DNA of 64,000 nt from Pseudomonadaceae bacterium (lineage in GTDB: Bacteria > Pseudomonadota > Alphaproteobacteria > UBA2136 > UBA6156). Below the pieces are notes generated by a model. The model was not told where the DNA came from. It saw only the letters and a program-made list of their open reading frames with translations, and did not search any database. How positions within the stretch are numbered: position 1 is the first letter of the stretch; every line of letters begins with the position of its first letter. A program made the translations under genes and the position numbers. The stretch covers positions 214,291-278,290 of the forward strand of contig JACKLD010000012.1 of the NCBI GenBank assembly GCA_024236095.1. The letters are read 5' to 3'. Positions 6,206 through 41,514 of this stretch are shown here, one piece after another.

Positions 6206-6339
6206 CCCATCACATAGGGCATCGTCCGATGTTTGCAAGCCCCCGCAACACAGTCCCCTCTGTCTTTTTCCACGGGGGAATTGACCGTTGTTGCGTTGCA
6301 GCATAGGCTGGCGCCAACAACCAACAACAAGAGGCCCCC

Positions 6340-16153: not shown

Positions 16154-16681
16154 TTACGCGGTCTCGGCGCGAAACCGCGCACCCAACTCGGCATAATGCG
16201 GCGCCGACCAGCCGATGTAAGCGCGCTCTTCGTCGGTCAAACGGCGCACCGGTTTGGCAGGCACACCGGCCCACAGCCAACCGCTTTCCACCACCTTGCC
16301 GGGCGACACCAACGCTCCTGCCGCCACCATGCTGAATGCCTGTACCACCGCCCCGTCCAACACCTTCGAGCCCATGCCGATCAAGCAATCGTCGTGGATC
16401 TGGCAACCGTGCACGATGGCCCCGTGGCCGATGGTCACACGGTTGCCGATGATCAGCGGCCATTTTTCATAGGTGACATGGCACACCGCGTTTTCCTGAA
16501 TGTTGGTCATCTCGCCCACGCGGATGCGGTTGACATCTCCGCGCAGCACCGCGCCAAACCAGACGGAGCTGCGGCTGCCAACGTGCGTATCGCCGATCAC
16601 GCGGGCGCTGTCGGCCACAAACACGTTTTGGCCAAGGGTCGGGTGGATGCCTTGATAGGGGCGGATATTTGCGCCCATCAC
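16154..16681 (-). CDS. Gamma-carbonic anhydrase family / hexapeptide-repeat protein (YrdA/PaaY-like)
   Basis: 175 aa with left-handed beta-helix hexapeptide repeats and conserved His residues. Confidence 0.85.
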   Translation of the reverse strand: MMGANIRPYQGIHPTLGQNVFVADSARVIGDTHVGSRSSVWFGAVLRGDVNRIRVGEMTNIQENAVCHVTYEKWPLIIGNRVTIGHGAIVHGCQIHDDCLIGMGSKVLDGAVVQAFSMVAAGALVSPGKVVESGWLWAGVPAKPVRRLTDEERAYIGWSAPHYAELGARFRAETA

Positions 16682-16682
16682 C

Positions 16683-17204
16683 TCAGTTCCCCGTCCCGCT
16701 GATTTTGCCGGTCACATCGCGCGTGGCGAGCGAGATTCCGCTGGAAGCCCCCTCGCCTTCGCCACCGTCCACCGCCTTGAGCATCACTTGGTCGCGCTGC
16801 TTGCACTGGGCTTCAATCTTGGCGCCATCGGAAATATGGATGGTGCCGTACACCACCCGCCCGCGAATCACCGCGTTGGGGCGGCACTCCAGCTTTTCCA
16901 ACACATCCATCGGGCCGTTCACCGTGCCGTCGGCCAGCACCGAGGTGGCAATCACCGCACCGTTGATGACCGCCCCCTTGCTCACCACCAACTGGCCGCG
17001 CCCGCCTTCGTACACGCTCACCTTGCCGTCCACCCGGCCATCCACCCGCAATTGCCCGCTGAAGTACACGTCACCACGGATCTGCAAATTGCCGGTAATC
17101 AGGCAATGCCCGTCAATGTCACGGGGGTCGATCACCTCCAGCGACACGTCGGCACCGGCGGATTTCCCGCCCGACTTCGCCTTGCTGCCCAAAAACCAGA
17201 TCAT
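16683..17204 (-). CDS. Bactofilin (CcmA-like cytoskeletal protein)
   Basis: 173 aa with a DUF583-like repetitive beta-helix (GDVYFSGQLRVDGRVDGKVSV...). Confidence 0.8.
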   Translation of the reverse strand: MIWFLGSKAKSGGKSAGADVSLEVIDPRDIDGHCLITGNLQIRGDVYFSGQLRVDGRVDGKVSVYEGGRGQLVVSKGAVINGAVIATSVLADGTVNGPMDVLEKLECRPNAVIRGRVVYGTIHISDGAKIEAQCKQRDQVMLKAVDGGEGEGASSGISLATRDVTGKISGTGN

Positions 17205-17431
17205 GCCACCTTCCTACCCCATGCGCAGGCTTTAGAAAAGCCCCCTATCCTGTTTGCGCATGGGGCCTGTGGCACAACATCTGCGATGACACGACCCAAT
17301 GCAATTCAGGGAACGATCGATCGCGATACGGAGAGCGGAGAAGTTAAGGGAGCAAAGCCTCCTTACGCCACAGACGCCATTCCAAGGAACACGGGCCACC
17401 GACAATGCAAAGAGTTGGGTTTTGTTCGGTT

Positions 17432-18196
17432 TTAAAACGTTTTCCAGCAATACCCTACCGTCTTGGCCGCCGCATCAAACACCTTCACGTCAATCAGCCG
17501 CGTGGCGTCATCCGCCGCATCAATGGCCATTTCCCCCTTGATATCCATGCTTTTCGCCGTATCCAACGCAAACGATTTGCTATTGCCGCCGGCCTGCGTG
17601 TTGCTGCGCATGGCCACGGCATTGTCCCCCACCACCAGCGAGACCCGCGCCGTCAGCTTCGGCGGCAACTTGATGCCCTTGGCCACCTTGGTCAGGTTCA
17701 GGCTGTAACTGGCCTTGCCGTCGGCATACTTGGCATCAAGGTTGACGCACTGCACCAGCTCGCGCTCCAGCTTGGGCTTCAACAATTGCTCATAGGTGGC
17801 GATGCTCTGCTTCAGTGTCAGCAGTTCCCCTTCCACTTGCGTCAGCTTGCCGGTGGCTTCGGCGCGGGCGGTTTCGGCCATGGTGGTCTTGGCTTCGGCT
17901 TCGGCACGGGCCTTGCGCTCGGTGTCCAGCTGGTTTTTCATGGCATCATACTCAACCTTGAACTCTAGATAATCCTTGCGCATTTTCTCAGCTTCTTCAA
18001 CACGATGCTTCATCGAATTAAAGTCCAACTTCAGCCAAGCAGGCGCAATCACCCCCGCCGACACCAAAAACCCCCCCACCGGCAACGCCACCGCCAACAC
18101 CACCATACTCCAGAACAACTGGGTGGAAATATGCAGCGTCAACGGCCGCCGGTCGGTCTCGTTGCGCTTCATGATGAGAATGGTATAGGCGGGCAT
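17432..18196 (-). CDS. Membrane-anchored coiled-coil protein (bactofilin-neighbourhood)
   Basis: MKRNETDRRPLTLHISTQLFWSMVVLAVAL TM anchor, a long coiled coil and a C-terminal globular domain. It sits directly upstream of bactofilin. Confidence 0.5.
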   Translation of the reverse strand: MPAYTILIMKRNETDRRPLTLHISTQLFWSMVVLAVALPVGGFLVSAGVIAPAWLKLDFNSMKHRVEEAEKMRKDYLEFKVEYDAMKNQLDTERKARAEAEAKTTMAETARAEATGKLTQVEGELLTLKQSIATYEQLLKPKLERELVQCVNLDAKYADGKASYSLNLTKVAKGIKLPPKLTARVSLVVGDNAVAMRSNTQAGGNSKSFALDTAKSMDIKGEMAIDAADDATRLIDVKVFDAAAKTVGYCWKTF

Positions 18197-18277
18197 GGAG
18201 CGCAGTATAACAGAACGCCCCCTCCCCCGCACAATAAAAAAGGGAGCCAACGGCCCCCTTTTCTGCATAACATACAG

Positions 18278-18703
18278 TTAGCGTTTGCTGAACTGCGTGC
18301 TGCGGCGGGCCTTGTGTTTCCCGTACTTTTTGCTTTCCACCACGCGGGAGTCGCGGGTGAGGTAGCCCAGCTTCTTCAGCACCGGACGGTTGGAGGCTTC
18401 CATTTGCTCCAGCGCTTTCGAAATGCCGTGACGCAGGGCACCGGCCTGACCCGACAGACCGCCGCCGTGGCAACGGGCCACCACGTCGTACTTGCCGGCC
18501 TGGTCCAGCGCGAAGAACGGCTGGTTGGTAATCATCTGCAGCACCGGACGACCGAAGTAGTCTTCGATTTTACGACCGTTGATGGTGATCTGGCCCTTGC
18601 CTTTTTTCAGCCACACGCGGGCAATGGCGTTTTTCCGCTTGCCGGTGGCGTAAAAGCGGCCGGCCTTTTCGTTGGCGGCCTTGATGGTTTGCGCAATGCT
18701 CAT
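18278..18703 (-). CDS. rpsI: 30S ribosomal protein S9
   Basis: [17 protein letters not shown] ... [11 protein letters not shown]. Confidence 0.95.
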
Positions 18704-18704
18704 G

Positions 18705-19154
18705 TTACTTGGCCCCCTTGATGGTCATCGTCTTGGGTTGCTGGGCGGTGTGCGGGTGTTCGGTCCCGGCATACACGTGCAGCTTCTTGTACATCTTGCG
18801 GGAAAGCGCGCTCCACTTGGGCAGCATGCGCTTCACGGCGCGCTCCACCACGCGCTCGGGGTGTTTGCCGTCCAGCTCGGCCCCGGCGAGGATGGTCTTC
18901 AAACCACCCGCAAAGCCGGTGTGGTAATGGAATTCCATGTTGTCGCGCTTGTGGCCGGTCAGGCGCACTTTTTCGGCATTGATAACCACCACATGGTCGC
19001 CGTTGTCGACGTGCGGGGTAAAATTCGGTTTGTGTTTGCCGCGCAGAACCATGGCGATCTGGGAGCTCAAACGCCCCAGAGGCACGTCGGTGGCGTCCAC
19101 CACGTACCATTCGTTGTTGGTTTCGCTGGCTTTCAGGCTGGTGGTAATGTCCAT
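18705..19154 (-). CDS. rplM: 50S ribosomal protein L13
   Basis: [21 protein letters not shown]... Confidence 0.95.
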
Positions 19155-19321
19155 CCGGCTGAATCCTTTAGCTGTTCATATCAACCCAGCAAAGGCGCCG
19201 TGGCGCTTGTTTATCCCTGCCGGGGGCACTCCAATGAACGGGCCGCCGCAGCCACCCGCCAATTCCCGTCGCCATCGGGGAATGCCGCCTTGTAGGCGAG
19301 CCCCCTCCCCCTGTCAAGCCC

Positions 19322-21487
19322 CTATTCAACAATTCCCTCTTCCACCGCCATCTTCGGCACCGCCATCGCCTTGCGCTCGGGCTCACCGGCGGCCACGTCG
19401 GCGCCCGCACCGCCCGCCTGCCGTGTTTCGGCAAACCATTCGGCATAAACAAGCTGCAATTCAGCCATGGTGGAGCCTGCCCACCACGCCAACTTGTAAA
19501 GCCCCGGCGCCATCTGGTACACGCCATGGCGCAGCTTCAGGTTGTCCAGCGCTTGCTCGCGCACCTCCCACACCGCGTCATACAGGCCGCTGGCCATGTT
19601 CTCCAAATCGTCAAATTCGTCGACGTTGCGCCACACTTCCTGCGCCGACAGGCGCGGCGTCTCTTCGCCCACATCGCCCACATAAGGCAGCGGCGCCAGC
19701 AACACCAAGTCTTCGGCCGGAAGCTCCGGCAAAAGGTAGCGGGCAATGTACGGATAATTCTCCAGCACGTCCTCGCTTGGCTCACGCAGCACCTCCTTGG
19801 CTCCCAGCCAGGGCATGTCGGCGGACGGCGGCAACGCGGCGGCGTAGTTCTCCACCGAAAGGTACGGCTGGACAATCGGGCACACCCGCCCCTCGTCCTC
19901 GGCCGGGCACACCCCGTGCTCACGGTTGCGCGGGTGCAGCTCGGGGAACCAGAAGGTATCGATTTCAAATTCAAACTCCGGCGGCAGCGGGTGATACCCC
20001 ACATCGGCCATCACCGCATTGCCTTCAATCTTGGCCACCGCACTGATGGGCAAACGCTGCCCCGCCAGCCGCCGCTCCAGCGCATCGAAGGTAATCACGT
20101 CAAAACCCTTGCGCGGCACGATCGGGTAAAAACGCCCTTTCATTTTCTCGGGCACCGGCGCCAGCCAGCGGTTTTCATCCATGGGGTGACGCATCGCCTC
20201 GTAAATATGCTGCCAGCTTTCATAAAAGTAGTGCAGCGGGTCCCACAATGGGCCGAACAACTGTAAAAAGCGGCCGGTGGTCAAATCCCAGCCCCACAAC
20301 GCGGGGTTTTCAAAGTGCTCGGGGTGGGTGGGCAACCATGTGCTGCCCCATGCCGCCACGGTGCGGCTGTGCGGCAGGTTCAGGTTGGGGATAAGCGGCA
20401 GCGGATCGGCCACGTTGGGGCTGATATAGCCGCTCCCGTCGCTCACCGCCACACGGGCGGGCACAATCTTGCGGGCGGTAATGTAGCCGGGCGCCAGCAC
20501 CTCCAAAATCGTCCCCACCGGCGCCTTGTCGGCCCGTTCTTCCGCCACCTCGTGCAGCCCGCGCACCACCCGGCCCGGCCAGTAGTCTTCCAGCTCGAAC
20601 TCACGGCTCACCACCTGCATGCCGTTGCAGGCTTCAAAGGTCGGTATCAGCGTGCAGCCCTTGGCGAACAGGCCGTCCACCCATTCTTCGCCGCCCTGAG
20701 CCTCCAGCCAGTCTTCATAATCCGTCCCTTCAGGACGCACCGCCCATGCCGCCAACAAGGCGTCTCCGGCCGCGGCAGCATCCGCTTCGGCCACGCCGTC
20801 CTGCTTGGCAAACAGCATCTGCACCTGCGGCAGCTTCCAGCCGTCAATGTAAAAGGTATCGGGACGGTATTTGTAAGGGTACAAGTTCGGTGCATCATAC
20901 ACTGCCTGCACCGCCACATCGTCCGGCGCCCCGCTGGGCTGGCCCACCGGCCCGCGCCCCATGTCGAGGTTGCGGAACTTCAGCAAAAACACCTGTTCCA
21001 GCAACTCGGCTCCTTCCATGCGCCCGTCCACCTCGCGGCAATGGCGCGGGAACACCGCCAACGGCAGCCACGGCTTGGCGGGCCGCCCTTCGTCATCCAT
21101 GGCGGCGGCGTTGTAGGCGTCCCATTCCAGCGCGGTCTTGGCCTCCGGCCCGAGGCCGATATACACCGTCCGCCCCGCCAAATCCCGCACAAACAAGGGA
21201 GATAACGGCACTTCGGTATCCACCTCCATCAACGTCAAAATGTTCTCGTCGGTGGCCACGTTGTGCCCGTGCACACAGCCGCGCGGGTCACTCTGCCATG
21301 CCTCGCTCACCCGCTTGGGGCCTTCGGTGCCGTCAAACGGGTCGATGTCAAACAACGCACTGCCACCATCCCACAGATACGGATGCAGCCCCATGCCAAT
21401 CTCATGCCGCCCATACCGTGCCACCATGCGCTTGGTTGGCACCTTGCCCTTTTGCCCCCATGCGTTTTTGTAGTTCAGAACGTCCAT
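19322..21487 (-). CDS. Large hypothetical protein (721 aa), no recognisable domain
   Basis: Clean ATG start with coding-like codon usage. No signal peptide and no motif I can assign. Adjacent to the giant membrane protein gene. Confidence 0.6.
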   Translation of the reverse strand: MDVLNYKNAWGQKGKVPTKRMVARYGRHEIGMGLHPYLWDGGSALFDIDPFDGTEGPKRVSEAWQSDPRGCVHGHNVATDENILTLMEVDTEVPLSPLFVRDLAGRTVYIGLGPEAKTALEWDAYNAAAMDDEGRPAKPWLPLAVFPRHCREVDGRMEGAELLEQVFLLKFRNLDMGRGPVGQPSGAPDDVAVQAVYDAPNLYPYKYRPDTFYIDGWKLPQVQMLFAKQDGVAEADAAAAGDALLAAWAVRPEGTDYEDWLEAQGGEEWVDGLFAKGCTLIPTFEACNGMQVVSREFELEDYWPGRVVRGLHEVAEERADKAPVGTILEVLAPGYITARKIVPARVAVSDGSGYISPNVADPLPLIPNLNLPHSRTVAAWGSTWLPTHPEHFENPALWGWDLTTGRFLQLFGPLWDPLHYFYESWQHIYEAMRHPMDENRWLAPVPEKMKGRFYPIVPRKGFDVITFDALERRLAGQRLPISAVAKIEGNAVMADVGYHPLPPEFEFEIDTFWFPELHPRNREHGVCPAEDEGRVCPIVQPYLSVENYAAALPPSADMPWLGAKEVLREPSEDVLENYPYIARYLLPELPAEDLVLLAPLPYVGDVGEETPRLSAQEVWRNVDEFDDLENMASGLYDAVWEVREQALDNLKLRHGVYQMAPGLYKLAWWAGSTMAELQLVYAEWFAETRQAGGAGADVAAGEPERKAMAVPKMAVEEGIVE

Positions 21488-21514
21488 ATTCTTCTTCTTT
21501 TTGTGGTTAAGTCA

Positions 21515-24500
21515 CTAGCTTATATTGAATCCTCGGCTGGCGAAAATCTTGTTGGCAATACCCTGCTTCACGCTGTCATCAACCTTGTCGTCCAGCATCT
21601 GGATGATCAACTGCACATGCTGGTTGTAGTTCCCTACGCTCATCAGGGCGGCCTGCTCGTGGGTGGTCAGGTCATCCACCATGTCGGTAATTTGGTCCAA
21701 CACATTGATGCCAACCCCGGCACTGGCCAACAGGTTGCGCAAGCTGGCCTCGACGGCAGGACGGTTTTTGTCAAACATCGCCGCACGCTTGTAAGCATTC
21801 TGCGCCTGAACCTTGATCTGCTTCCGCGTCTTCTGCACATGCGGCATGGAATACTTGGCGTTGATGCTCTGTTGCAGCACACTGTTGATGCCTTCCTCAA
21901 ACGCCGCTTCATGGATCACGTTCAACGGGCTGTGCTTCTTGTAATCCTTCAAAATCACCTTGGCGTTGTTACGAACATCCACCGGCAAACTGGTATCGGC
22001 CAACTGCGCCTGCAGCTCGGCCTTGTAGTCCACATCAGCCTGACGCAACTGCAGGAACATGTCGGCCACCCCGCGCATTTGGTAGAACTGCCGTTTGCCG
22101 CTCAACATCTTGTTGAGCGCGCCAACCTTGTAATCGTCACCCAAGTCTTCGCGCATGAACTTGGTCACCGCATAGGCGTCATTCCGCGTCCGCGCCGCCG
22201 TGCCGTAGCTCTTGCGGGCGTCTTTTTCCACCAAGTAATAGTGGTCGCCAAACGCCCCTTCAAAGGTGCCGCCCACTTCCTTGGTGGCCTTGCTGCCGGC
22301 CAGCTCGCGCATCACGGCGGGAGTCAGCTTCACTTCGCCACCCGCCACCTTCATGGTGCCGTTTTGCACGGTGATCGCCATTTGGCGGTTGTTCATGTAC
22401 TGCTGCATCGCCTGCATCATGGTGGCGCCGCGCAGCTCTTCGGCACTGAAGAACGCCTTGCTGCCCTCGCGCCCGGTGGCCTGCTGCAAGGCCTTGTAGC
22501 CATCGGCGTTTTTCGCCGCCGCTTCGCTGGCCGCCTGCCGTGCGGCGTTCATCATGCCCCTGAAGGCATCCTGCCCCATCGCCATGTTGCCGAAGTACTG
22601 GTCACCCTTGGCAATCTCGCCGATTTCCTTCTCGTAGAAGCCCAAGCGCTGGCCTGCCGCCTTTCGTTCTTTCCATTTCTTGAAGCCACCCGCTTCCTGC
22701 CATGCACGGGCGCGTTCAGGGCCTTCCTTACCCTCGTTCAACACTTCCTTGATGACATTGAAGCCCGGAATGCTCCCCGCCGCCCCGCTGGCGGTAATCG
22801 AACCATAAAAGCCCGACGCCGCCGTCATCCAATACCCCGGCAAACTGGGCTTGTAATCGTTTTTCTTGATACGCTCACCCAGTTCTTTATGACGCTTGCG
22901 CATGTCTTCCAGACGAACATCGTCGATACTTTTCGCGGCTGTCTCTTCCAACATGTCTCCGGTGGCTTTCCACACGGCTTTCGAAGACGCCTCGATATCC
23001 TTGGCCTTGGGCTGGCCACCATCCACGATCTTGTCGTAAATGGTTTTTGCCTCCTTGGTGTTGTCTTTCCCGTCCGCAACCACGCCGCCTGCTGCCTTCA
23101 CATCTCCGGCCGTGGCTTCTTCCATTTGCCCTTGCTGCACCGCTGCCTGCTGTGCGGTGGCGCTTGTTACCGCATCGCCATCCTGTCCCGGCGCCTGCTG
23201 TCCCAAGCTGCCGACATTCAAAGTCTGCACATCCATCTGGCCGACACTTCCGGCGCCACCGCCACCTCCCTGTGGGCCGCTTCCCGGAGATATGGGTCCC
23301 TTGGGAGTATTCGGGCCGCCATCACCATCATCACCATCGTCATCAGTTCTGGGTTTCCTCAAACGATCGAACGCCTCGTTTTCCCGCTCGGCCTGTGTTT
23401 GCATATCAAACATCCGGTTTGCTTCTTCAGCTTCCGTCTGCAAATCGTACATGGCATTGGCATCTTCCGCCTCCGCCATAATGCTGTCGGCATTGGCTTC
23501 AAAGTCACTTTGGGCTTGGTCAAGACGCGCATTTTCAGCTTCAGCTTCGTTTTGAAGATCAAACATATCGTTTGCAGCATAGGCCATATCTTCTTCTGCA
23601 GCCCTCATCTGCTTCTCAAGGGCATCCCTTTCCTCCATATCCCGCTCACGTTGCGCCTCAGTATCTTGCTTGCCGAGCTTACGCCGATTCCACGCACTCA
23701 ATCCCGCCCCGCCCACACCTGCCCCAACCGCCGACGCGATGGTAATAGCGGCTTTTTTCCCTGCATCGGCAATTTTCTCCGCAGCCCCATCAATCTCGGT
23801 AAGCTTCTGGATATTCTGCGCATCGCCGATCTTGAAAATCAGGAACATGGTCATCCCCACCAGCGACGAGTAAATTCCCGCAATCCCGAACAGGAACACG
23901 CCTTGGCGGAAGTTGCTGTCGATAGGCCCCTGTCCGGTGAGCGAGATGGCTTTGTAAATCACATCGCCCAACCGGTCGACCAGCAAGAATGTCACCGGCA
24001 CAACCTTCAACACCCCCACAATCAGGATGCTCTGGATAAGAAGCCCGGCAGCATGGTTGGGCATGGCAATCCCGAACAGGAAGGCAATCGGCGTGATCAT
24101 GATCACCATCAGCAACACCATATCGACAATGACACGCATAATTTCGATAATCGCCATGGCCACAATCCCGGCAAAAATAGACGCAAGGCCCGTCAACATC
24201 TTCCCGATGGCTGCAATAAAGCTACCAATTGCCCCTTTACCCCAAAAGCCGGTATCTTCCGTCAAGACTTTGACTTCGTTCAAACCAAGAGCATCAACCC
24301 CCTTGGCCATTTCTTCGTTTTGGAGCTGCTTGGCGGTATTTCTCAAAACAATCGCGTAAATCGACTCCGCCAAGAAACGTCGTTTTTCAATGTCGCTGGT
24401 TTTGGCGTCCAAATTTTCCTTGAAGAACTTGCCGTTGAAGTAGGTGATGAAGTTGTTGATGGATTCTGCCGATACCTGCCCCCCCTGCAGCATCGATGCA

Positions 24501-25933
24501 TCCCAAAGTTGCGGAATAGGCTTGCTGCCGTTTACGTACTCGCGCAAGGCCGAAGGAACATTCCACCCCAAAAACATCCCTTCATAAACCTGATTGGCAC
24601 TGGCTTGGCTGCACCTGCTTGATTGCAGGTCGTACTTGGTATCTTGGGCAAATGTCGCATCAGTGATACGCCCCGGAATAACCATGGATGGGGCTGGCAT
24701 CGACCCAAGAACCGTTGCAGGGCTCGACGCCATTCTCAGAATTCCTGCCAACGAAGTCCGCCCTTCCGCATCAACATCAGACTTTGGATCCTCAAATGCC
24801 TGCTGAACTTTCGATTGTGCCCGTGGAAGCGTGGCTTTCAACAACCCCTTGAAAGATGAACTGGTTCCCGAGCTGCCCAGGTCCGACTGTGTCACCAAGT
24901 AATATAATAGCGAATCTGGGCGCGCATGCACGCGCGCAAGCGTCGCCTGCCCCTTTAAGTCCTTAATCAGTTTTGCGTAACTGATGCACGTATCGCAGTT
25001 ACCCACTCCCGTAACAGGAGATCCATTAGACTTTATTGCCATGTTACGGATTTCCAGCAAGCCCTGCTTATACATCTCTGGCTTGTTCGGAATCGACTCT
25101 TCGTCCTCGTATAACATCAACATAGGCGGGACAAACACCGAAAGGTCTTGCGCATTCGTTTTCGCGTAAAAATCTTTAATATTTGCAATAAATGCGGGCA
25201 AGCTGTCAGGGGCAACCAGTGCATCCACCCCTGTAGCCGCAGGAGATGTTGTTGCACCCGCTGTCGCTGTTGTAGCAGGCGCCGTTGCCGCAGCAGCAGG
25301 CTGCAAATCCTTGGGGAGAGGCGGAATGCCACATTGCGCAAAATCTTTGGCCAGATTGTACCAGTTTCTACCGGCTGAAATAGACGGACTCGACATCAAA
25401 AACCGCTCAGCCTCCGCAGCCGCAATCAGCCCCTGATACCCCTGCGACCTGAACAAGTCGGCAAAAATCACTTCCAGCGTGGTGCCCACGTGGGCGGCCA
25501 CCAACTGCGGGGTAAAGCCCATGACTTCTGGGACAGATTGCGTGGCACCGGGAGTTGCCGCCACCATACCGGGAGATATCGGCTTGTTGATCTTGTAAAA
25601 TAACAACTGGCTGTTATAAGGCGCAAACAAACAGATGATGGTCACCAGCAACCACGCCGCAATGGTCTTGAAGTTGTGCAGCGCCTTGTTGAAGACGATC
25701 GCCAGCGCCCCCACCAGCGCCGAGGCCAGCGCCACGTAGTACAGTGCGGGCACTGCGCCACCGTTGTAGCCCTTGAACAGGAACCATTGAAAAGTAAACC
25801 CGGTCAGCAGACTGTCCATCTGCGCCTTGGTCATGCTCAAAAACGGAAACGTCGTATCCGGCGTAAAACTCTGCGCAAACGCCCCGCCACTGGCGAAAAC
25901 AAACGCCAACGCGAAAAGCGCCAACAGGCGCAT
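21515..25933 (-). CDS. Giant secreted/polytopic membrane protein (about 1470 aa), VirB6/TraG_N-like topology with coiled-coil tandem repeats and an Asp/Gly-rich linker
   Basis: Signal peptide MRLLALFALAFVFASGGAFAQ, then 2 TM helices, a soluble segment of about 450 aa, a cluster of 4-5 TM helices (aa about 640-790), then 22-aa coiled-coil repeats (DMFDLQNEAEAENARLD...). These are followed by a DDDGDDGDGGPNTPKGP...GGGGGAG linker and a C-terminal domain of about 600 aa. Lower GC than the flanks. Confidence 0.65.
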   Translation of the reverse strand: MRLLALFALAFVFASGGAFAQSFTPDTTFPFLSMTKAQMDSLLTGFTFQWFLFKGYNGGAVPALYYVALASALVGALAIVFNKALHNFKTIAAWLLVTIICLFAPYNSQLLFYKINKPISPGMVAATPGATQSVPEVMGFTPQLVAAHVGTTLEVIFADLFRSQGYQGLIAAAEAERFLMSSPSISAGRNWYNLAKDFAQCGIPPLPKDLQPAAAATAPATTATAGATTSPAATGVDALVAPDSLPAFIANIKDFYAKTNAQDLSVFVPPMLMLYEDEESIPNKPEMYKQGLLEIRNMAIKSNGSPVTGVGNCDTCISYAKLIKDLKGQATLARVHARPDSLLYYLVTQSDLGSSGTSSSFKGLLKATLPRAQSKVQQAFEDPKSDVDAEGRTSLAGILRMASSPATVLGSMPAPSMVIPGRITDATFAQDTKYDLQSSRCSQASANQVYEGMFLGWNVPSALREYVNGSKPIPQLWDASMLQGGQVSAESINNFITYFNGKFFKENLDAKTSDIEKRRFLAESIYAIVLRNTAKQLQNEEMAKGVDALGLNEVKVLTEDTGFWGKGAIGSFIAAIGKMLTGLASIFAGIVAMAIIEIMRVIVDMVLLMVIMITPIAFLFGIAMPNHAAGLLIQSILIVGVLKVVPVTFLLVDRLGDVIYKAISLTGQGPIDSNFRQGVFLFGIAGIYSSLVGMTMFLIFKIGDAQNIQKLTEIDGAAEKIADAGKKAAITIASAVGAGVGGAGLSAWNRRKLGKQDTEAQRERDMEERDALEKQMRAAEEDMAYAANDMFDLQNEAEAENARLDQAQSDFEANADSIMAEAEDANAMYDLQTEAEEANRMFDMQTQAERENEAFDRLRKPRTDDDGDDGDGGPNTPKGPISPGSGPQGGGGGAGSVGQMDVQTLNVGSLGQQAPGQDGDAVTSATAQQAAVQQGQMEEATAGDVKAAGGVVADGKDNTKEAKTIYDKIVDGGQPKAKDIEASSKAVWKATGDMLEETAAKSIDDVRLEDMRKRHKELGERIKKNDYKPSLPGYWMTAASGFYGSITASGAAGSIPGFNVIKEVLNEGKEGPERARAWQEAGGFKKWKERKAAGQRLGFYEKEIGEIAKGDQYFGNMAMGQDAFRGMMNAARQAASEAAAKNADGYKALQQATGREGSKAFFSAEELRGATMMQAMQQYMNNRQMAITVQNGTMKVAGGEVKLTPAVMRELAGSKATKEVGGTFEGAFGDHYYLVEKDARKSYGTAARTRNDAYAVTKFMREDLGDDYKVGALNKMLSGKRQFYQMRGVADMFLQLRQADVDYKAELQAQLADTSLPVDVRNNAKVILKDYKKHSPLNVIHEAAFEEGINSVLQQSINAKYSMPHVQKTRKQIKVQAQNAYKRAAMFDKNRPAVEASLRNLLASAGVGINVLDQITDMVDDLTTHEQAALMSVGNYNQHVQLIIQMLDDKVDDSVKQGIANKIFASRGFNIS

Positions 25934-26140
25934 GTCACCAAAGCGGCGCGGGCACGTCATAGGTACATTGTGGGGATGCTTCCGCCCGTCTTCAAGGGAT
26001 ACAAAGGTATACCTGCCCATCTCTGTGGCGTTTTGGCCCCGACCTCTGCCCGATGCAATGCCCATGAGAACACGGAGACCACCATACGCCATCACCACGC
26101 CCGCAGGGCCTCATTGCGAGCGCCGTGCGGCAATCTCCCC

Positions 26141-26319
26141 TCCCGTTCATCAACTTTGGAAACTCATTCAAAAACTGGCGGAACGGGAGGGATTGCCGTC
26201 GCTCCGCTCGGCGGCCTGCGGCTCGAGCCCATGCCCGTAGGTCGTATCGAGAGTTCTCACCCTCCCGTTCATCAACTTTGGAAACTCATTCAAAAACTGG
26301 CGGACGGGAGGGATTCGAA
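26141..26319. repeat. Two tandem copies of a 58-bp hairpin unit, each ending in a copy of the tRNA-Ser 3' end (att-site direct repeats)
   Basis: CCCTCCCGTTCATCAACTTTGGAAACTCATTCAAAAACTGGCGGA(A)CGGGAGGGATT appears at 26141-26198 and 26259-26319. TGGCGGAACGGGAGGGATTCGAA equals the 3' end of tRNA-Ser at 31909-31931. Confidence 0.65.
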
Positions 26320-26483
26320 TTGAAGAAATAATGCTTTAATTTGATTCAGTTAAAAAATTTTCTAAAAATCCCAAGGCCCCTATTTAAGCCCCCATAACAA
26401 TCCGCTTTTTACTTTCAAACACTTGATTCATAAGTACTAATCCTTACTATTCATCAATACTGTAGGTTATAAATCATCTCTCG

Positions 26484-26942
26484 TCAACTTGACGTGCATG
26501 CAGATACAGCTCTGCTGTATACCCTAACCGATTCAATTGTATTATTTTCAACAAAATCCCAGAAATCTTCGCTAAACTTTAATCTAGGGTTGAAGGCGAT
26601 TGAAAAACCACTTGAAGCTAACTTTTTCAAATTTAAAGCTTCTGCAAACCACTCTAGTACATTGAGAGGGTTTGAATGCACGCTGGGCTTCTGTGCCACA
26701 AATACTAAATGTCCACCATCACGGTAAAACTCATCAGATAAAACAATAAAACACTCCAAAAACGGCCAATCATCAAAAGTTGAAGGAATACCACCGGGAG
26801 TAGTGATTAAATCTTTCTTCCGGTGACACGCAATTCTTGAAAAAGCATATTTTTCATCATCAAGTAGCCCATTATTAATATAGGCAAATTTTGTATTCTT
26901 AGAATTTGTAAATTCAAAACTTTCGGAAAAAAATATTCTTAA
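26484..26942 (-). pseudogene. Decayed gene remnant (no ATG; frame open to 26942) in a very AT-rich stretch
   Basis: The ORF-track M at 26757-26759 is a TTG. The frame continues upstream with ...KYAFSRIACHRKKDLITTPGGIPSTFDDWPFLECF... and no ATG. Confidence 0.3.
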
Positions 26943-27259
26943 TTATCTCACTTCTAGATGTTTTTTGTTCTAACGGTAACGATGCTTGAGCATCCTCAAT
27001 AAGTGAAAACGCATAAACACCAAAACGGATTTTTCCCTCACTCATTCGAGTTACCTCTCCATTGATTTCTTAGAAACTTCATCCACCACTTTCACATCTG
27101 AAAACCAGAAGTTTTAACTCTCCTCGCACAACAAGTTATTAAGTTAATTCAACGGGTAGATTATATAATAAAATTCAAATCGTAAGTCAAACTTTACAAT
27201 ACTACAGTGCCGCTGTAATCTTCTTGTGTTAAGGCTTATTTTGTTGTATACGAAACGGC

Positions 27260-28291
27260 ATGATAAATAATGTAAAGTCTGCCGTTTGTGACCCAAAGCC
27301 AATAATTACCTTGGGTGTTCCGGCGCGTAATGAGGCTCAAAATCTCCCACGGTTGGTATCCTCCCTTCTACATAATCAACAAATTGTTCAGGATCGATAT
27401 CATTTACAAACACTTATTTGCATAAATGGCTCAACTGACAAGAGCGAAGAAGTCGCCTGTAGTTTGGGGGGTGACCCACGTTATCAGGATTTAAACATTA
27501 GTGTGTTATCATCTGATGCCGGGAAAATGGCTGCACAACAAGAAATCTGCCGCCAACGGCAGGGTGAGTGGGTTGTTTTCGCCGACGCTGATACTGAATT
27601 GGATCAAAACTGCCTAAATGGCTTGTTGATCGATGCGGAGCAACATCCGGAGGCACAGGTAGTATATGCTGATACTATTCCACAATGGTCTGGAAAATTA
27701 AGTTTGTTTGACTGGATGCTCAGCGTTCACTATCAGCAACCTGATGTTTTAACGCATCGTCACTACTTCCAAGGGCGTAGCTTTTTGATTAAATGCCCCG
27801 ATGTTTTTCTCTCCACGATGCGGAAAGGTGAGGGTTTGGAAAAGGCCTATCCTCGATTTTTAAACCTTCAAGCAGGGCCACAAATTGACGATGTGTACTT
27901 GTCACGTTTGATTTTCGACAAGTACGGCGCTGGATCAATGTTAAAATCCCCTTCGGCAAGGTTGAACTATGTTCCGCCCCGCAGCATGGCAGATTACTAC
28001 CGAGGCATGAAACGCCTGCTTATTGAGATTCATCGGCTGGATATTTTGTATCCTGAACATGCTCACTTACAGCGAGATTATTTCCAGCGCCGGACAATTC
28101 TTAAACGTTGGGCTGGATTGACGGCCTCAACCCAGTTGCGTCATATGGGTTACAAGAGCTTTGACCATGTGGTGAGGGGTATTGTTAAAATGCAGATTGC
28201 AAAAGGGTATTTGTTCCCAAATTCAGAAACAGAGCTTTGGCCGGAGACGAGGACAACCAAGTCCTTTGAGCAGGAGGATAAGGAAGTATAA
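27260..28291 (+). CDS. Glycosyltransferase family 2 (GT-A fold)
   Basis: ITLGVPARNEAQNLPRLVSSL N-terminus and a DAD (DxD) motif in VVFADADTELD. Soluble, low GC. Confidence 0.7.
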   Translation: MINNVKSAVCDPKPIITLGVPARNEAQNLPRLVSSLLHNQQIVQDRYHLQTLICINGSTDKSEEVACSLGGDPRYQDLNISVLSSDAGKMAAQQEICRQRQGEWVVFADADTELDQNCLNGLLIDAEQHPEAQVVYADTIPQWSGKLSLFDWMLSVHYQQPDVLTHRHYFQGRSFLIKCPDVFLSTMRKGEGLEKAYPRFLNLQAGPQIDDVYLSRLIFDKYGAGSMLKSPSARLNYVPPRSMADYYRGMKRLLIEIHRLDILYPEHAHLQRDYFQRRTILKRWAGLTASTQLRHMGYKSFDHVVRGIVKMQIAKGYLFPNSETELWPETRTTKSFEQEDKEV

Positions 28292-28893
28292 TGAACGATT
28301 ATTCAAAGCTTAATTTGGGGTGTGGACAGAGGCCGAATAACAAGTTCCCTCGGCCATGGTTGAATGTCGACCGAGAGGGGGCGGTGGCTGATATAACATG
28401 GGATATTGCTGACCTGCCGCAAGCATGGAACGCCACTTTTGATGAGGTTCGTGTTTCCCACGTTTTAGAGCATTTCTTTTTGGCTGAGGTACCGAATGTT
28501 CTTGCTGGGTGGTTACGGGTTTTGAAACCGAATGGAGTGTTGAGGGTTATTGTACCAGACTTGGATATTATTCTAAAAAATCTTCAGGATGGGATTGATG
28601 CAAAAGGGCGTACAGCCCTGTCTACCACCGAAACCACTCCTGTACTCGCCCAAATATACGGGATTGGTTATGATCAGGCTTCTACGGGGACACACTGGCG
28701 GCACCGGATGATTTACAATGAGGCCATGTTACGTTCTATCCTTCTACAAACGGGTCAGCTCACCAATATCACGAGATATTCTAAGGTTGATGATCCTGCC
28801 TATGGTTTTGGAATAGTGGATGATTCTCAAAATATCTTTTCACTTGGCATGAAAGCCGATAAAGTAACAACGCATGAAATGATGGGGGTTTAG
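28291..28893 (+). CDS. Class I SAM-dependent methyltransferase
   Basis: LNLGCGQRP motif I and VSHVLEHF, with a Methyltransf_11/23-like layout. The ATG overlaps the upstream stop (TAATGA). Confidence 0.7.
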   Translation: MNDYSKLNLGCGQRPNNKFPRPWLNVDREGAVADITWDIADLPQAWNATFDEVRVSHVLEHFFLAEVPNVLAGWLRVLKPNGVLRVIVPDLDIILKNLQDGIDAKGRTALSTTETTPVLAQIYGIGYDQASTGTHWRHRMIYNEAMLRSILLQTGQLTNITRYSKVDDPAYGFGIVDDSQNIFSLGMKADKVTTHEMMGV

Positions 28894-29991
28894 ATGCCTA
28901 TTTTAACAGATGAACGCCAGAAGTATTTTGCTGATTATGGCGGTATTGCCTTGGGTTTAAATATTGCACAGGAGTCGGCAAACACCGTTCCCATGTTATT
29001 TACCCCGCCTCATCAATGTGTGGCGAAAGACGACATAGCAGCTGGAAATGTGGCGCTTGCTATGTTTCGGGGTAAGAAAGTTGTTTTAAAGGCGTCAACG
29101 GGTGATCGTGACTTTACCGAACATGCCAAACGCGGGGTTGGTACCTCTCGTAACCGTAAATCTTTGTTGGTTGATGTTGGAACTACTTGGGAGGCTGATG
29201 TTCTTCCACAGTTTGTAAATGAGTCGGGTGATGTACGCTCTATTGTTTTGCAAGAATTTGTAGCTTTGCCTGATAATGCCTACGCGATTGTACATGCAAA
29301 GGCCGATGAAATGCTGATTGAATTTACTGTGGATGGGGATCGCTTCTTACTTTTTGTTAATCATAGGAATGGGGCAACCTCCCTTGAAACAAGTCGTCAT
29401 GATGGGGATATGACCTCACTACATGGCCGAATTGACGTAAACCATTTTGCGGCGATGATGCGGGATATGTACAAGGTTGTAGGGTTTGATTTCAATATTG
29501 AATGTTTTATGAATCGTAGCTTAGTTTCAATCATTCAACTTCGCCCCGTGCCTCAAGATATACCCCACGATCCTTTAATCACGGCCAAGATTGCCCAACG
29601 TCTAGTATTGCCAACACAGCCCCCTTTGCATCATACGCGTTTTGTGTGTGGGCTGGTGGATAGCTATGGTGTTATCCAAACAAATGTAGAAGCGGCTCAT
29701 AATGTTGGGCAACCTGATACCATGTTGGTACTGCGAGATACCCCTGACTTGCCTTGGGAATATCCTTTTTTTGCCCAACGGGCAGCTTCCAGCCTAAGAA
29801 CAGTTTTTGTGGATGTTCACAGTGCTTCGACTTTATCTCATGATCCGACGGATTTACCTATGGACTTGGGTGTTCGAGAACATTACCGGCGTTTTGCCGC
29901 CCCACGTTTTCAAACAACCGAACTTGTTGGCCGAAATGTTGAAATCCTTATGGACGGGCACGAGGGAGTCATGGATGATCATGGCCGGTAA
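28894..29991 (+). CDS. Hypothetical protein (365 aa), unknown function
   Basis: Starts 1 nt after the MTase stop. No motif I can assign. Co-operonic with GT2, MTase and Nudix. Confidence 0.55.
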   Translation: MPILTDERQKYFADYGGIALGLNIAQESANTVPMLFTPPHQCVAKDDIAAGNVALAMFRGKKVVLKASTGDRDFTEHAKRGVGTSRNRKSLLVDVGTTWEADVLPQFVNESGDVRSIVLQEFVALPDNAYAIVHAKADEMLIEFTVDGDRFLLFVNHRNGATSLETSRHDGDMTSLHGRIDVNHFAAMMRDMYKVVGFDFNIECFMNRSLVSIIQLRPVPQDIPHDPLITAKIAQRLVLPTQPPLHHTRFVCGLVDSYGVIQTNVEAAHNVGQPDTMLVLRDTPDLPWEYPFFAQRAASSLRTVFVDVHSASTLSHDPTDLPMDLGVREHYRRFAAPRFQTTELVGRNVEILMDGHEGVMDDHGR

Positions 29992-30529
29992 ATCAAAATC
30001 AACGAAGATGAGAAAACGTATGACACAAGATCGTAACCGTACCGTGATGATTAAGGGTAAGCAGGTCAATTTCGTCTTTTTGGGTTCGGAGGCTAAAATT
30101 CCCTTTGATAAGGTGACAAGCGTATCAGTCATTCCTTTTACGAAGGTTGGGGATGTTGTGGCGGTGCGTAACCCACGCGGGATTGATATTCCTGGAGGGC
30201 ATGTGCAACAGGGTGAAACCTCCATTGAGCAAGTGGCTCACCGTGAAGTGGGTGAGGAAGCCTACGCCAAAATGGATTCGGTTGAAGTTGTTGATGTTAT
30301 TCAATCTGACTACTATGGTTCAGCACCCGACCAGCTTACTTACATGGTTATCATGATGGGGGAAGTAAGTGAATTAATGCCGTTTGAGGTTAATGATGAA
30401 ACCACAGAGCGTCAGATTATGCCCACACAAGATTTCCTTACCGCCTATTCGGGTGGAGATCGAGGTGATATGGAGGCCCTTTTAAAGGCTGCGATTGAGA
30501 AACGTGCTATGGGGATGGGGGGACGTTAA
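29975..30529 (+). CDS. NUDIX hydrolase
   Basis: Nudix box GGHVQQGETSIEQVAHREVGEEAYA. The start overlaps the upstream gene by 17 nt. Confidence 0.75.
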   Translation: MIMAGKSKSTKMRKRMTQDRNRTVMIKGKQVNFVFLGSEAKIPFDKVTSVSVIPFTKVGDVVAVRNPRGIDIPGGHVQQGETSIEQVAHREVGEEAYAKMDSVEVVDVIQSDYYGSAPDQLTYMVIMMGEVSELMPFEVNDETTERQIMPTQDFLTAYSGGDRGDMEALLKAAIEKRAMGMGGR

Positions 30530-30645
30530 CCCCAAACCCACCACCCCACCCCCAGCCCGAGGGCGAAGCCGTACAGCACCATAAACACATACACGATCAC
30601 CATTTCAGGCCGTCCGGGTGGGGGAATATGGGGTTCGGGAATCAT
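30526..30645 (-). CDS. Putative 39-aa hydrophobic peptide (single TM)
   Basis: MIPEPHIPPPGRPEMVIVYVFMVLYGFALGLGVGWWVWG. GGAGG lies 6 nt upstream of its ATG, which sits 2 nt after the stop of the upstream ORF, and its stop overlaps the Nudix stop by 4 nt. Could be spurious. Confidence 0.25.
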   Translation of the reverse strand: MIPEPHIPPPGRPEMVIVYVFMVLYGFALGLGVGWWVWG

Positions 30646-30646
30646 C

Positions 30647-31015
30647 CTACTTGCCTCCCTTTTTGGCTTCGGCCTTCAACTGTTCGTCCAGAGGGGTGAA
30701 TAACAAGCCGCACTTCTTGGCGATGCTGGCTTGTTCGATAGCCTCATATTCTCCCTTCAACTGGCGATACTCTGCCGCCTCGGGGCCATCTCCGCCTTCC
30801 AGAAAGAACAACGCTGGCCAGAACAACACCAACCCCACGCCCATCTGCCATGAGTCCGAACTGGCTTCGCTTTTGAGTTGTTGGTAAAGCTTGCTTGTCC
30901 GGCGGGTGATCCGGGTTTGCTCCATGCCAAGCTGCTGGCAGTCGTACTGCTGATACATCAATGGCGACACATCCGCCGCGATCATCTTGTCGGGATTGCT
31001 CGCACAAGCGGCCAA
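30647..31015 (-). CDS. Hypothetical protein with one hydrophobic segment
   Basis: 122-aa ORF between the island cargo and the integrase fragment. No recognisable domain. Confidence 0.35.
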   Translation of the reverse strand: MAACASNPDKMIAADVSPLMYQQYDCQQLGMEQTRITRRTSKLYQQLKSEASSDSWQMGVGLVLFWPALFFLEGGDGPEAAEYRQLKGEYEAIEQASIAKKCGLLFTPLDEQLKAEAKKGGK

Positions 31016-31023
31016 AAGACCCG

Positions 31024-31743
31024 CTATGGCGATTGTGAGGGGTTGGGGGTATGGGCATACAGCCGAGCCTCATTCCGTTCCAGCTTCCGCAAGAAGTCAG
31101 GCAATGCGCTGGCATCAAACGCCGCATAATGCCCTTTTGAGTAAGGTTTCAGGGCATCCCGATTCATGAACGTGGCAACCGGGTTGTGCTGCACCAATCC
31201 TTCCACAATGGCATACCGGAACACCTGCCCGCACATTTGCTTGAGCCGCCGGGCCACCTCATGGGCTTTCCGCTCTTCCACTTTCCTAATAGCCCCGATG
31301 ATATCCTGAACCGTCACATCCTTAATGGGCATGGCCCCAAACGCCGGGAAGATATCCCGCTCCAGTCGCCGCAGGTTGTAGCTGCCATGATTTTCCGTCC
31401 AGCCAGACACATTCTTGGCGTGCCATGCTCGAGCCACCACCTCAAACGTGGTTTCGCTTTCCAGTTTGGCTCGCGCTTTGTCTTTTCGTTTCTCAAGGGC
31501 CGGATCAACCTCCTGCGCTTTCATCTTCCGGGCGGCCATGGCCTTCTCCCGGGCCTCGGCCAACGTCACCAGCGGGTAACTGCCAAGGGCAAGTTTCTTT
31601 TCTTTCCCAAGATAGTAGTACTTCAGCTTCCAATGTTTGCCCCCGGCAGGAGACACCAACAGATACAACCCGTCAAAATCGGCCAGTTTATAAGGCTTTT
31701 CCTTGGGTTTCGCGGCTTGAATGGCCTTGTCGGTGAGGGGCAT
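31024..31743 (-). pseudogene. int: Truncated P4-type phage integrase (N-terminal DUF4102/SAM-like region only, 239 of about 400 aa)
   Basis: MPLTDKAIQAAKPKEKPYKLADFDGLYLLVSPAGGKHWKLKYY... is the standard P4-integrase N-terminus. The ORF ends before the catalytic R..HxxR..Y domain. It lies adjacent to the tRNA-Ser 3' end. Confidence 0.7.
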
Positions 31744-31908
31744 TTGGGGGCCTCCTGTTTTTTGATGGGGGCCTAATGGGTAAATTTGGCCCCTAAAAGT
31801 TCTGGCTAGGGGCGTTTTTTACCGGATGAAGCCGAACACAAAAGCAGGATAAACCCAAGTAATTCCGCCTGTCTAGTGAATTTCTCCGAATGTCGCTGAA
31901 TCAAATAA

Positions 31909-32002
<94 letters not shown>

Positions 32003-39585: not shown

Positions 39586-40040
39586 CGCCAAACGGGGGCA
39601 CCTTGCACGCGCAGATCCGAAACGCGGGCCAAAACCCGGCATTCTGTCGAATCCGCGAGAGCATACCTTGACGCCAACCGCACACAGGCCGAAACCCGTC
39701 TGCGTTTGGTCAATTTTGTTGCGTTAACATCTTGCGTCATCAAAGACAGCGGGTGGATTGCACGCTAGCGCAACCGGCCCGCAAGATGCCAACACGGCTA
39801 TCTTGGAGTTATTGACTTCCTATAAAATTGTCACAGAGCCGGTGCTTCGGCGGTTGCCCGCTTCCGCACCCAAGGCCGGTCGGGCAAATGCCCCCGCGCC
39901 GTGGAGTGGGGTATAGGTGACTCCCCACGCCCTGTCAACACTCTCACCCCAACTTTTTTCAACAATCTTTCGCCTCGCCTGCAACCTGTTTCATCACAAG
40001 GAAAAAGGGGGCCGCGGCCCCCTCTCCATAATCGCCCCCG

Positions 40041-40601: not shown

Positions 40602-40602
40602 C

Positions 40603-41160: not shown

Positions 41161-41217
41161 AGACAGGCTCCTTTTGTTTTAGTATTATCTAAATCGAGAA
41201 TAAAGGATTCCACCCCC

Positions 41218-41514
41218 GTGTCAAGCGCCATCAACCCCCAAGCCGCCGCACAGGCCAGCAACCTTCTCAAACACATGGCCCACAAGGGGCGCCTGCTGGT
41301 ACTATGCGCACTGGGCGATGCCGAACACACCGCCGGCGAACTCGCCGCCCTCACCGGCCTCACGCCTTCGGCGCTCTCACAACACCTCGCCCGCCTGCGC
41401 GAGGCAAACCTGGTCACCGCCCGCACCCGCCACCGCCATCGCGTCTATACACTGGCCTCTCCCCACATCCGCACGCTTATCAGCACCCTGAAAACCATCT
41501 ACTGCCCACGCTGA
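41218..41514 (+). CDS. ArsR/SmtB-family transcriptional regulator
   Basis: GRLLVLCALGDAEHTAGELAALTGLTPSALSQHLARLREANLV wHTH. GTG start. Divergent from the yeeE/yedE pair. Confidence 0.7.
   Translation: MSSAINPQAAAQASNLLKHMAHKGRLLVLCALGDAEHTAGELAALTGLTPSALSQHLARLREANLVTARTRHRHRVYTLASPHIRTLISTLKTIYCPR

Follow-up and report, generated by a model that had tools for sequence, protein, structure and literature searches.

The giant gene and its predicted layout

The stretch of DNA described here (the window) comprises 64,000 nucleotides (nt) of contig JACKLD010000012.1 (assembly GCA_024236095.1, positions 214,291-278,290, forward strand). Its minus strand carries a very long gene, the giant (21515-25933), which is followed by the gene for a neighbour of 721 amino acids (aa), p721. 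From its open reading frame (ORF), its family and a remote link to TraG_N, the giant is a putative TraG_N/VirB6-class polytopic inner-membrane protein with a long tail. Homologous proteins are numbered with the prefix P and the loci of relatives with the prefix L, and family members outside the window are referred to as giant homologues. The ORF extends from 21515 to 26098, and translation from the ATG at 25933 gives 1472 aa, in line with the original prediction of about 1470 aa. An alternative ATG lies at 25963 (MTCPRRFGDMRLL...), and the frame remains open as far as a GTG at 26098. Because the N-terminus of the homologue P0004 (MRTTHRFGDMRLL) has the peptide RFGDMRLL in common with that of the giant, the ATG at 25963 is an equally plausible start. 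The gene is real and intact, and in the alignment with its homologues all of the family-invariant residues are kept. A scan of 19000-26400 for promoters and terminators returned counts at chance level.

The topology of the giant was read from Kyte-Doolittle hydropathy only, rather than from a dedicated topology predictor, and the helices of its AlphaFold2 (AF2) model are consistent with this layout. The protein begins with a signal-peptide-like N-terminus (25871-25933; hydrophobic segment at aa 1-23, MRLLALFALAFVFASGGAFA followed by Q), which is conserved in homologues, and continues into an N-terminal transmembrane (TM) hairpin (25616-25759; aa ~59-106, with helices at about aa 59-82 and 84-106) that bears the invariant motif CLFAP..S.LLFY. 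Residues 107-568 contain no hydrophobic segment and form a large loop of ~460 aa (24239-25615) with two family-invariant cysteines, C201 and C441. All five cysteines of the giant fall within its first 560 aa, in this loop, and the last ~730 aa are free of cysteine; from the topology and the cysteines the loop is presumed to be periplasmic. A TM cluster follows (23828-24238; aa ~566-702, or 569-702 by hydropathy), in which hydropathy and the AF2 helices indicate four to five helices, which aligns to the TraG_N core in hhalign comparisons and which has the family-invariant pattern TP...L...P.HA.G.L.Q...K.VPV. Beyond the cluster there are no further clear TM segments. With four helices the tail would be periplasmic and with five cytoplasmic, and its predicted side is ambiguous.

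The cysteine-free tail of ~770 aa has three parts: (i) an acidic helical segment (23366-23596) with a weak 13-aa periodicity, within a linker that is hypervariable among homologues; (ii) a low-complexity linker rich in poly-Asp/Gly and Pro/Gly (TDDDGDDGDGGPNTPKGPISPGSGPQGGGGGAG, about aa 863-895; 23249-23347); and (iii) a conserved C-terminal domain of ~440 aa (21518-22846), delimited by alignment and profile searches. The succession of signal peptide, two TM helices, large loop, TM cluster and long C-terminal extension, along with the poly-Asp/Gly linker, had been described in the original prediction and is borne out by these data.

The giant family and its partner p721

The giant had been taken for an orphan, which it is not. 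A profile of its N-terminal domain, searched exhaustively with HMMER against 1.84 billion representative sequences, retrieved 121 representative relatives, nearly all of them 1000-2200 aa long. A word-indexed search found five relatives of 1463-1588 aa with 31-36% identity, and the same search with an alignment of eight sequences returned these five and nothing further. The five close relatives share an N-terminal membrane domain of ~740 aa and a C-terminal domain of ~430 aa around the hypervariable linker. The C-terminal domain is present in 56 of the 124 family sequences tested and is lacking in the short members that lie inside an operon (see below), in the shortest of which the TM hairpin region is still matched (hmm positions 34-121). 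No similarity of the C-terminal domain to the C-terminal regions of F-type TraG, to any Pfam family or to any PDB sequence was found. More generally, the PDB sequences that were matched by profiles of the N-domain, of distant members and of p721, or by the sequence of the window C-terminal domain, were all at chance level. No tblastn match to the giant, p721 or the homologue P0214 was obtained among 72,556 plasmids, nor any to the giant or p721 among 50,697 phages; a phage origin is rejected.

The p721 gene (19322-21487, minus strand) begins 27 nt past the giant stop codon and encodes a protein in which neither a TM helix nor a signal peptide is predicted (hydropathy). It has more than 150 homologues, all unannotated, and has no match in Pfam, NCBIfam or PHROGs; it is far better conserved than the giant. 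Homologues of p721 with 54-59% identity directly follow giant homologues in L006, L007 and L008. In a survey of 45 p721 matches from GTDB species and their loci, p721 is preceded by a large ORF on the same strand in nearly all cases in which upstream DNA exists, and the N-domain hidden Markov model (HMM) of the giant matches this upstream ORF in L013-L044, with E-values from 1e-7 down to 0. The giant and p721 therefore constitute a conserved two-gene module of obligate partners. An apparent exception to the pairing was seen in L026 (2949-4838), where the ORF before a primary-type p721 (46% identity) has ~630 aa and is matched by neither the N- nor the C-domain HMM of the giant; a masked stretch, a frameshift or a replacement could account for it.

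Two further loci were noted in the course of the survey. The only cultured organism among the p721 matches is Brucella daejeonensis DSM 26944 (L034; NZ_JACIJG010000023.1), in which a p721 homologue of 42% identity (1541-3607) is preceded not by a giant but by small ORFs (247 and 222 aa), where an overlapping stop-to-stop ORF (86-847) has three hydrophobic segments; it is followed by a homologue of peri630 (4350-6404), a 630-aa periplasmic protein described below. The giant homologue P0002 lies on a Filomicrobium-type contig of 64 kb (L001), of which the stretches 1-3860 and 20904-24545 are of note. This contig also encodes tail-fibre-like proteins (Peptidase_S74, Laminin_G_3), DnaB, an HNH protein and a Gabija-like pair (AAA_15/AAA_21 and OLD-TOPRIM) followed by a UvrD helicase. 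This content suggests a mobile-element or phage-plasmid context for the P0002 branch of the family.

The AF2 model of p721, built with 107 sequences, reached a predicted local distance difference test (pLDDT) score of 94.8 and a predicted TM-score (pTM) of 0.93, and it has no significant match in PDB or BFVD. The PDB matches that Foldseek reports are GrpE chains only, including all nine at the top of the ranking (E 0.019-0.44, probability up to 0.99, ~115-127 columns), and they delimit a GrpE-like module of helices followed by a small beta domain at aa ~234-351 (20435-20788, minus strand). The Pfam GrpE family (PF01025; gathering threshold 25.8 bits) is matched at 12-20 bits, below threshold, in 20 of 33 p721 family members, and only over profile positions 124-164, which correspond to aa ~325-351 of the window p721 (GTILEVLAPGYITARKIVPARVAVSDG); the window p721 itself has no Pfam GrpE match. 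As modelled, p721 is thus a GrpE-like helices-plus-beta module inside an otherwise new fold. That p721 contacts an Hsp70-type ATPase is speculation.

Relatives of the giant within a type IV secretion operon

Many metagenome-assembled genomes (MAGs) that carry p721 have a second p721 paralogue, ~35% identical, inside a conserved operon that resembles a type IV secretion system (T4SS) (L047, 5698-19125, and equivalents in L028-L057). The operon runs in the order TraE, p237, SLT, UvrD-like, ParB-like, peri630, a TraG-like membrane protein where present, p721, TraB/VirB10, p147, TraC/VirB4, a Pro-rich protein and p297. Pfam families matched within it are TrbI (PF03743)/VirB10 (E 1.8e-13), P-loop_TraG/TraC_F_IV (the TraC/VirB4 ATPase), TraE/VirB8 (weakly), an SLT transglycosylase and a UvrD-like helicase. 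The conserved genes that are unannotated encode a ParB-like/helix-turn-helix protein of ~730 aa, the Cys-rich periplasmic protein of ~630 aa with a signal peptide (peri630), p147, a Pro-rich single-TM protein of 700-820 aa and p297. As a whole, this type of T4SS operon is not recognised by any library that was searched. Neither a relaxase nor a type IV coupling protein (T4CP) was seen in the operon stretches inspected, and peri630 is not homologous to the giant loop (E 0.35).

In eight genomes (L028, L029, L030, L032, L038-L040, L044), a family member of 937-1290 aa and p721 lie together inside this T4SS operon, between the ParB-like or peri630 gene on one side and TraB/VirB10, p147 and TraC/VirB4 on the other. 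In these in-operon members, the TM hairpin is matched by the giant profile, and so is the TM cluster. In twelve other operons (L033, L036, L045, L047-L053, L055, L057), peri630 is directly followed by the p721 paralogue; the membrane gene is absent here, and within +/-10 kb there is no large polytopic ORF. The same twelve MAGs carry a separate primary-type p721 locus, which is preceded by a giant in every case in which the upstream DNA is available. The closest relative of the window, MFD03283 bin39, is one of the twelve (L013 and L048). The simplest history is that the module was duplicated or relocated out of the operon and that the in-operon membrane gene was then lost. In addition, a VirD4/TraG-type coupling protein (PF02534, PF10412, PF12696) is encoded ~1.2-1.8 kb away from each of the giants P0001 and P0002. 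The examination of homologue neighbourhoods that had been proposed thus yielded relatives that are paired with p721 and, in eight genomes, are members of a T4SS operon.

Remote similarity to TraG_N and VirB6

TraG_N (PF07916) is the Pfam family most frequently matched by distant members of the giant family, with 4 of 41 at E<=1 and a best E-value of 2.3e-4. The best-scoring of these, P0214, aligns through its aa 500-726 to TraG_N profile positions 216-457, which is the segment that matches the giant TM cluster. One of the 41 distant members matches TIGR03782 (Bacteroidetes TraJ) at E 4.6e-4, and Bacteroidetes TraJ is homologous to VirB6 (PMC4027160). Five bona fide TraG_N proteins, namely F TraG (938 aa), R27 TrhG (1329 aa) and three others of 1051-1322 aa, served for profile-profile comparison with hhalign. 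Against these five, the distant subgroup of the giant family gave E 2.4e-5 (probability 76%) and the N-domain profile of 100 sequences gave E 6e-4 (probability 28%). The alignment covers identical columns in every comparison, namely window aa ~594-707 and F TraG aa 320-434, and the real scores of 52.5 and 39.4 exceed those of the reversed control and of all 20 block-shuffled controls (maxima 39 and 26). By hydropathy, the five TraG_N proteins mostly have two N-terminal TM helices, a loop of ~270 aa, a TM cluster and a long tail; the giant likewise has an N-terminal TM hairpin, a large loop, a TM cluster and a long C-terminal region. These data suggest that the giant is homologous to TraG_N, through a similarity that is weak but reproducible. 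Coupling-protein neighbours, operon membership and this remote similarity are three independent lines that tie the family to type IV secretion.

Several results weigh against this assignment and against a role in type IV secretion. The window giant has no match at E<=1 in Pfam, NCBIfam or PHROGs, and the P0214 score of 20.7 bits falls short of the TraG_N gathering threshold of 36.1 bits. In hhalign, the profile of close orthologues reaches TraG_N at E 0.035 only, and a C-domain profile of 56 sequences compared with the C-terminal regions of the five TraG proteins gives E 0.23 over 8 columns. Spurious profile matches arise easily with helical membrane segments. The exhaustive HMMER search, with its ~121 relatives, brought no flood of TrbL, VirB6 or TraG_N proteins. 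The AF2 model of the giant N-domain, built with six sequences, has a pLDDT of 51 and is unusable, and a fold search with it was meaningless. As regards gene context, queries for T4SS components matched no ORF in the 64-kb window, L035 and L037 have the giant and p721 pair with no T4SS genes in the stretch fetched, and p721 and peri630 have no match to any F Tra protein, so that the F plasmid has no p721 counterpart. In further searches, a direct HMMER comparison of F TraG with the giant family gave nothing, neither the giant nor the 41 distant members have a Pfam match to TrbL/VirB6 (PF04610), and three profiles found no PDB sequence match, TrwI chains included.

The VirB6/TraG_N-like reading of the topology in the original prediction holds, with a weak profile-profile similarity and the operon context of relatives in its favour, and it is not upheld by the HMM search suggested at the time, in which the window protein matched neither PF07916 nor PF04610 at E<=1. 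Its remark that no other T4SS genes are nearby is correct for the window. The outcome that it named as contrary evidence, a lack of HMM matches combined with homologues in a conserved non-mobile context of known function, was found in part: HMM matches are lacking and the context is conserved, and no known function is attached to it.

Chromosomal position and the adjacent tRNA-Ser island

The window represents the chromosomal core, in which the giant and p721 are flanked on one side by rplM and rpsI (18278-19154), a bactofilin gene and pgk, and on the other by hemF, a cold-shock gene (CSD), purD and two SIMPL genes, in the order SIMPL, SIMPL, CSD, hemF, tRNA-Ser, an island, giant, p721, rplM, rpsI. 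The tRNA-Ser(GCU) gene lies at 31909-32002 on the minus strand, and att-like copies of its 3' end are found at 26163-26194, 26285-26316 and 31896-31927. The first two copies, 122 bp apart and just upstream of the giant, lie inside a perfect direct repeat of 45 nt (26138-26182, 26260-26304) and are consistent with the att scars that the original prediction had placed beside the gene. The island (26138-31927) is 5.7 kb long, has a guanine-cytosine (GC) content of 42-46% and is integrated at the 3' end of tRNA-Ser(GCU). Its cargo consists of a truncated P4-type integrase gene (31024-31743; arm-binding and central domains, without the catalytic domain) and of GT2, methyltransferase and NUDIX genes.

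The 5' end of the giant, whether at 25933 or at 25963, lies outside the att-bounded interval, and the candidate reading of the giant as cargo of the tRNA-Ser island is rejected for this reason. The GC content of the giant is 55%, in contrast to 42-46% in the island. By codon position it is 0.57/0.42/0.66 in the giant and 0.67/0.43/0.79 in p721, which agrees with the earlier statement that the giant is lower in GC than its neighbours. A tRNA-Ser gene is directly upstream of the giant in L007, L009, L015, L020, L023 and L031, and in L009, L015, L020, L023 and L031 the order tRNA-Ser, giant, p721 occurs without any island. The neighbourhood in L009 matches that of the window (SIMPL-SIMPL...CSD-hemF-tRNA-Ser-giant-p7xx), and in L009-L012 the pair is followed by Grx, BolA, SSB, RecG and Mfd. 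This shared position recurs in diverged genomes, whose p721 proteins are 45-59% identical. The succession of tRNA-Ser, giant and p721 is thus an old syntenic arrangement, beside which the island was inserted later.

Elsewhere in the window, the stretch downstream of rpsI (16154-18268) holds a 278-aa gene with a weak DUF6776-like match, the bactofilin gene (16683-17204) and a hexapeptide-repeat transferase gene (16154-16681), and may be a cell-shape module. On the minus strand, 40000-52600 holds a run of short ORFs with high GC at the third codon position (GC3), together with ORFs of 339 and 455 aa, and has a strongly negative GC skew; from this ORF pattern and skew it looks like a candidate ribosomal-protein cluster of the S10/spc/alpha type.

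Repeats within the giant

The original prediction had placed 22-aa coiled-coil tandem repeats in the giant, with DNA-level repeats at about 23380-23640 that could expand or contract by slippage. Tandem Repeats Finder (TRF) detects no 22-aa or DNA-level tandem array there, and a DNA repeat search returned short compositional matches of 12-17 nt only. The best self-offset of the DNA is 39 nt at 41% identity, which is inside the range of codon shuffles (95th percentile 42%). In the protein sequence, a period of 13 aa alone is significant (score 0.84, compared with a maximum of 0.78 in 500 shuffles), corresponding to about 3-5 degenerate copies of a motif that resembles (A/R)M(F/Y)D(L/M)Q(T/N)(E/Q)AE. 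A small array of 9 nt was detected by TRF at 23320-23342, inside the poly-Asp/Gly linker. Since no DNA repeat rises above chance, slippage is not a credible mechanism in the giant, and the candidate of slippage-prone repeats is rejected on the negative results of TRF, repeat search and codon shuffles alike.

A probable detached T4SS subunit and its alternatives

On balance, the giant is probably a detached VirB6/TraG-class polytopic inner-membrane subunit of a divergent, dispersed and unannotated chromosomal T4SS of uncultured Alphaproteobacteria. The main uncertainty of this reading arises because the homology consists of weak membrane-segment similarity together with gene context. Of the core components of T4SSs, VirB6/TraG is understood least, and its evolution is too rapid for standard HMMs. 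According to the proposed scheme, the giant and p721 module would have originated inside the T4SS operon and, in the lineage of the window, would have been duplicated or relocated beside tRNA-Ser(GCU), after which the relocated giant may have gained its long linker and a new C-terminal domain. Going by the analogy of VirB6 and TraG, the giant would have its TM hairpin and TM cluster in the inner membrane at the base of the secretion channel or stalk, and its Cys-containing loop in the periplasm. The ~770-aa tail and p721 could provide lineage-specific functions, for instance the recruitment of a partner or substrate, or the stabilisation of contacts as in F TraG. The giant would presumably work in trans with a T4SS operon elsewhere in the same genome.

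Alternatively, the giant and p721 could form an envelope module that has no part in type IV secretion, for instance in surface or contact-dependent delivery, in envelope maintenance or in chaperone-linked handling of membrane proteins, so that relatives would owe their T4SS neighbourhood to co-option or to common ancestry and not to a function shared at present. This would fit the position of the pair among housekeeping genes (rplM-rpsI in the window; Grx, BolA, SSB, RecG and Mfd in L009-L012) and its stability beside tRNA-Ser, as well as the lack of the giant C-terminal domain in in-operon members, the hint of Hsp70 biology in the GrpE-like module of p721 and the sub-threshold level of the TraG_N similarity. 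Such a module is nevertheless unlikely, given that eight genomes have the membrane protein and p721 between T4SS core genes, that twelve MAGs have an operon without the membrane gene yet possess a separate primary-type p721 locus, and that two giants adjoin a T4CP.

The remaining alternatives invoke mobile elements. It is very doubtful that the giant is a mating-pair-stabilisation or entry-exclusion TraG of a conjugative element, with the entire T4SS being an ICE (integrative and conjugative element) widespread in the lineage and not a domesticated secretion system. The operon does include ParB-like and UvrD-like helicase genes and the F-like markers TraE and TraC_F_IV, P0001 and P0002 adjoin T4CP and DnaB genes, and the long C-terminal part of F TraG acts in mating-pair stabilisation and entry exclusion (PMC4027160, PMC12624023). 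On the other hand, the operons inspected have no relaxase or T4CP, neither the 72,556 plasmids nor the 50,697 phages gave a tblastn match, and the position of the pair is syntenic across diverged genomes. Least probable of all is a giant without function, left behind by a degraded ICE (the original prediction had considered an ICE remnant) or by the tRNA-Ser island next to it. The att-like repeats and the truncated P4-type integrase nearby, the GC and GC3 of the giant below those of its neighbours, and the presence of some homologues on apparently mobile contigs with DnaB, T4CP or integrase speak for such a leftover. However, the giant is outside the att-bounded island of 26.2-31.9 kb and differs from it in GC (55% vs 42-46%), its 4.4-kb ORF is intact with all invariant residues kept, and p721 has a core-like GC3 of 0.79. 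Because the same order of tRNA-Ser, giant and p721 recurs without an island in L009, L015, L020, L023 and L031 and the giant lies outside the island, the remnant reading is removed.

If the giant is a detached T4SS subunit, as preferred here, a further-reaching proposal can be made, which is itself distinctly unlikely. The giant and p721 would mark an undescribed class or sub-class of T4SS, vertically inherited in uncultured Alphaproteobacteria and Magnetococcia, with a split-off channel subunit enlarged by a new C-terminal domain and with p721 as its cytoplasmic partner of new fold, in which the GrpE-like module of p721 would recruit or regulate an Hsp70-type ATPase and so link the DnaK cycle to secretion. 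Apart from this proposal, no search of Pfam, NCBIfam or PHROGs with the window protein detected the family of about 120 clusters, and its strictly co-inherited partner of ~700 aa brings a confidently predicted fold that, apart from the GrpE-like module, is unmatched in PDB and BFVD. The membrane gene is found either inside the operon or is absent there with a giant and p721 elsewhere, which amounts to a natural experiment on the dispersal of T4SS modules, as in Rickettsiales. Profiles of the giant family could recover "missing VirB6" components in MAG annotations, and if the lineage is associated with hosts or prey, its T4SS would be a candidate machine for effector delivery.

Comparison with known systems

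TraG of the F plasmid and the TraG_N family are the closest counterparts. The N-terminus of TraG is homologous to VirB6, a polytopic protein whose central periplasmic loop is large (PMC4027160). The giant resembles F-type TraG in its N-terminal TM helices (which form a clear pair in F TraG and in two of the four others), large loop, TM cluster and long C-terminal extension, in a weak sequence and profile similarity over the TM cluster, in a size above 1000 aa, which is normal in the TraG_N family, and in having relatives in operons with TraE, TraB and TraC homologues. It differs in its loop (~460 aa instead of ~270 aa), in an unrelated C-terminal domain and in falling below every Pfam threshold. 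Moreover, the giant is not beside traH, traF or traN; it is always paired with p721 and is detached from the T4SS operon.

In the structure from R388, a VirB6 pentamer makes up the base of the stalk in the inner membrane; it is in contact with VirB10 and recruits pilin (PMC12624023). With VirB6, TrbL and TrwI the giant has in common a polytopic inner-membrane character, a large periplasmic loop (presumed in the giant) and the same presumed role in the machine (PMC4027160, PMC12624023), whereas no HMM or PDB sequence match connects them and the giant is four to five times larger. The partner can be compared with GrpE (PF01025), to which a ~120-aa segment of p721 is alike by predicted fold and, in 20 of 33 members, by a 40-aa sequence motif. 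Unlike GrpE, p721 has matches to that family below threshold only (12-20 vs 25.8 bits), and the module makes up about one sixth of a protein whose remainder is unmatched in PDB and BFVD.

A dispersed system is known from Rickettsiales, in which the rvh T4SS is alphaproteobacterial and vertically conserved, has its genes in several loci and has VirB6-like proteins that extensions have enlarged to 674-1154 aa (PMC2653234). RvhB6 has a recognisable VirB6/TrbL domain, belongs to a P-type (vir-like) system and has no p721-like partner, whereas the domain of the giant is TraG_N-like at best and its operon markers are F-like (TraE, TraC_F_IV). In its dispersal and in its enlarged VirB6-like proteins, the rvh system nonetheless offers a precedent for the arrangement proposed here for the giant (PMC2653234).

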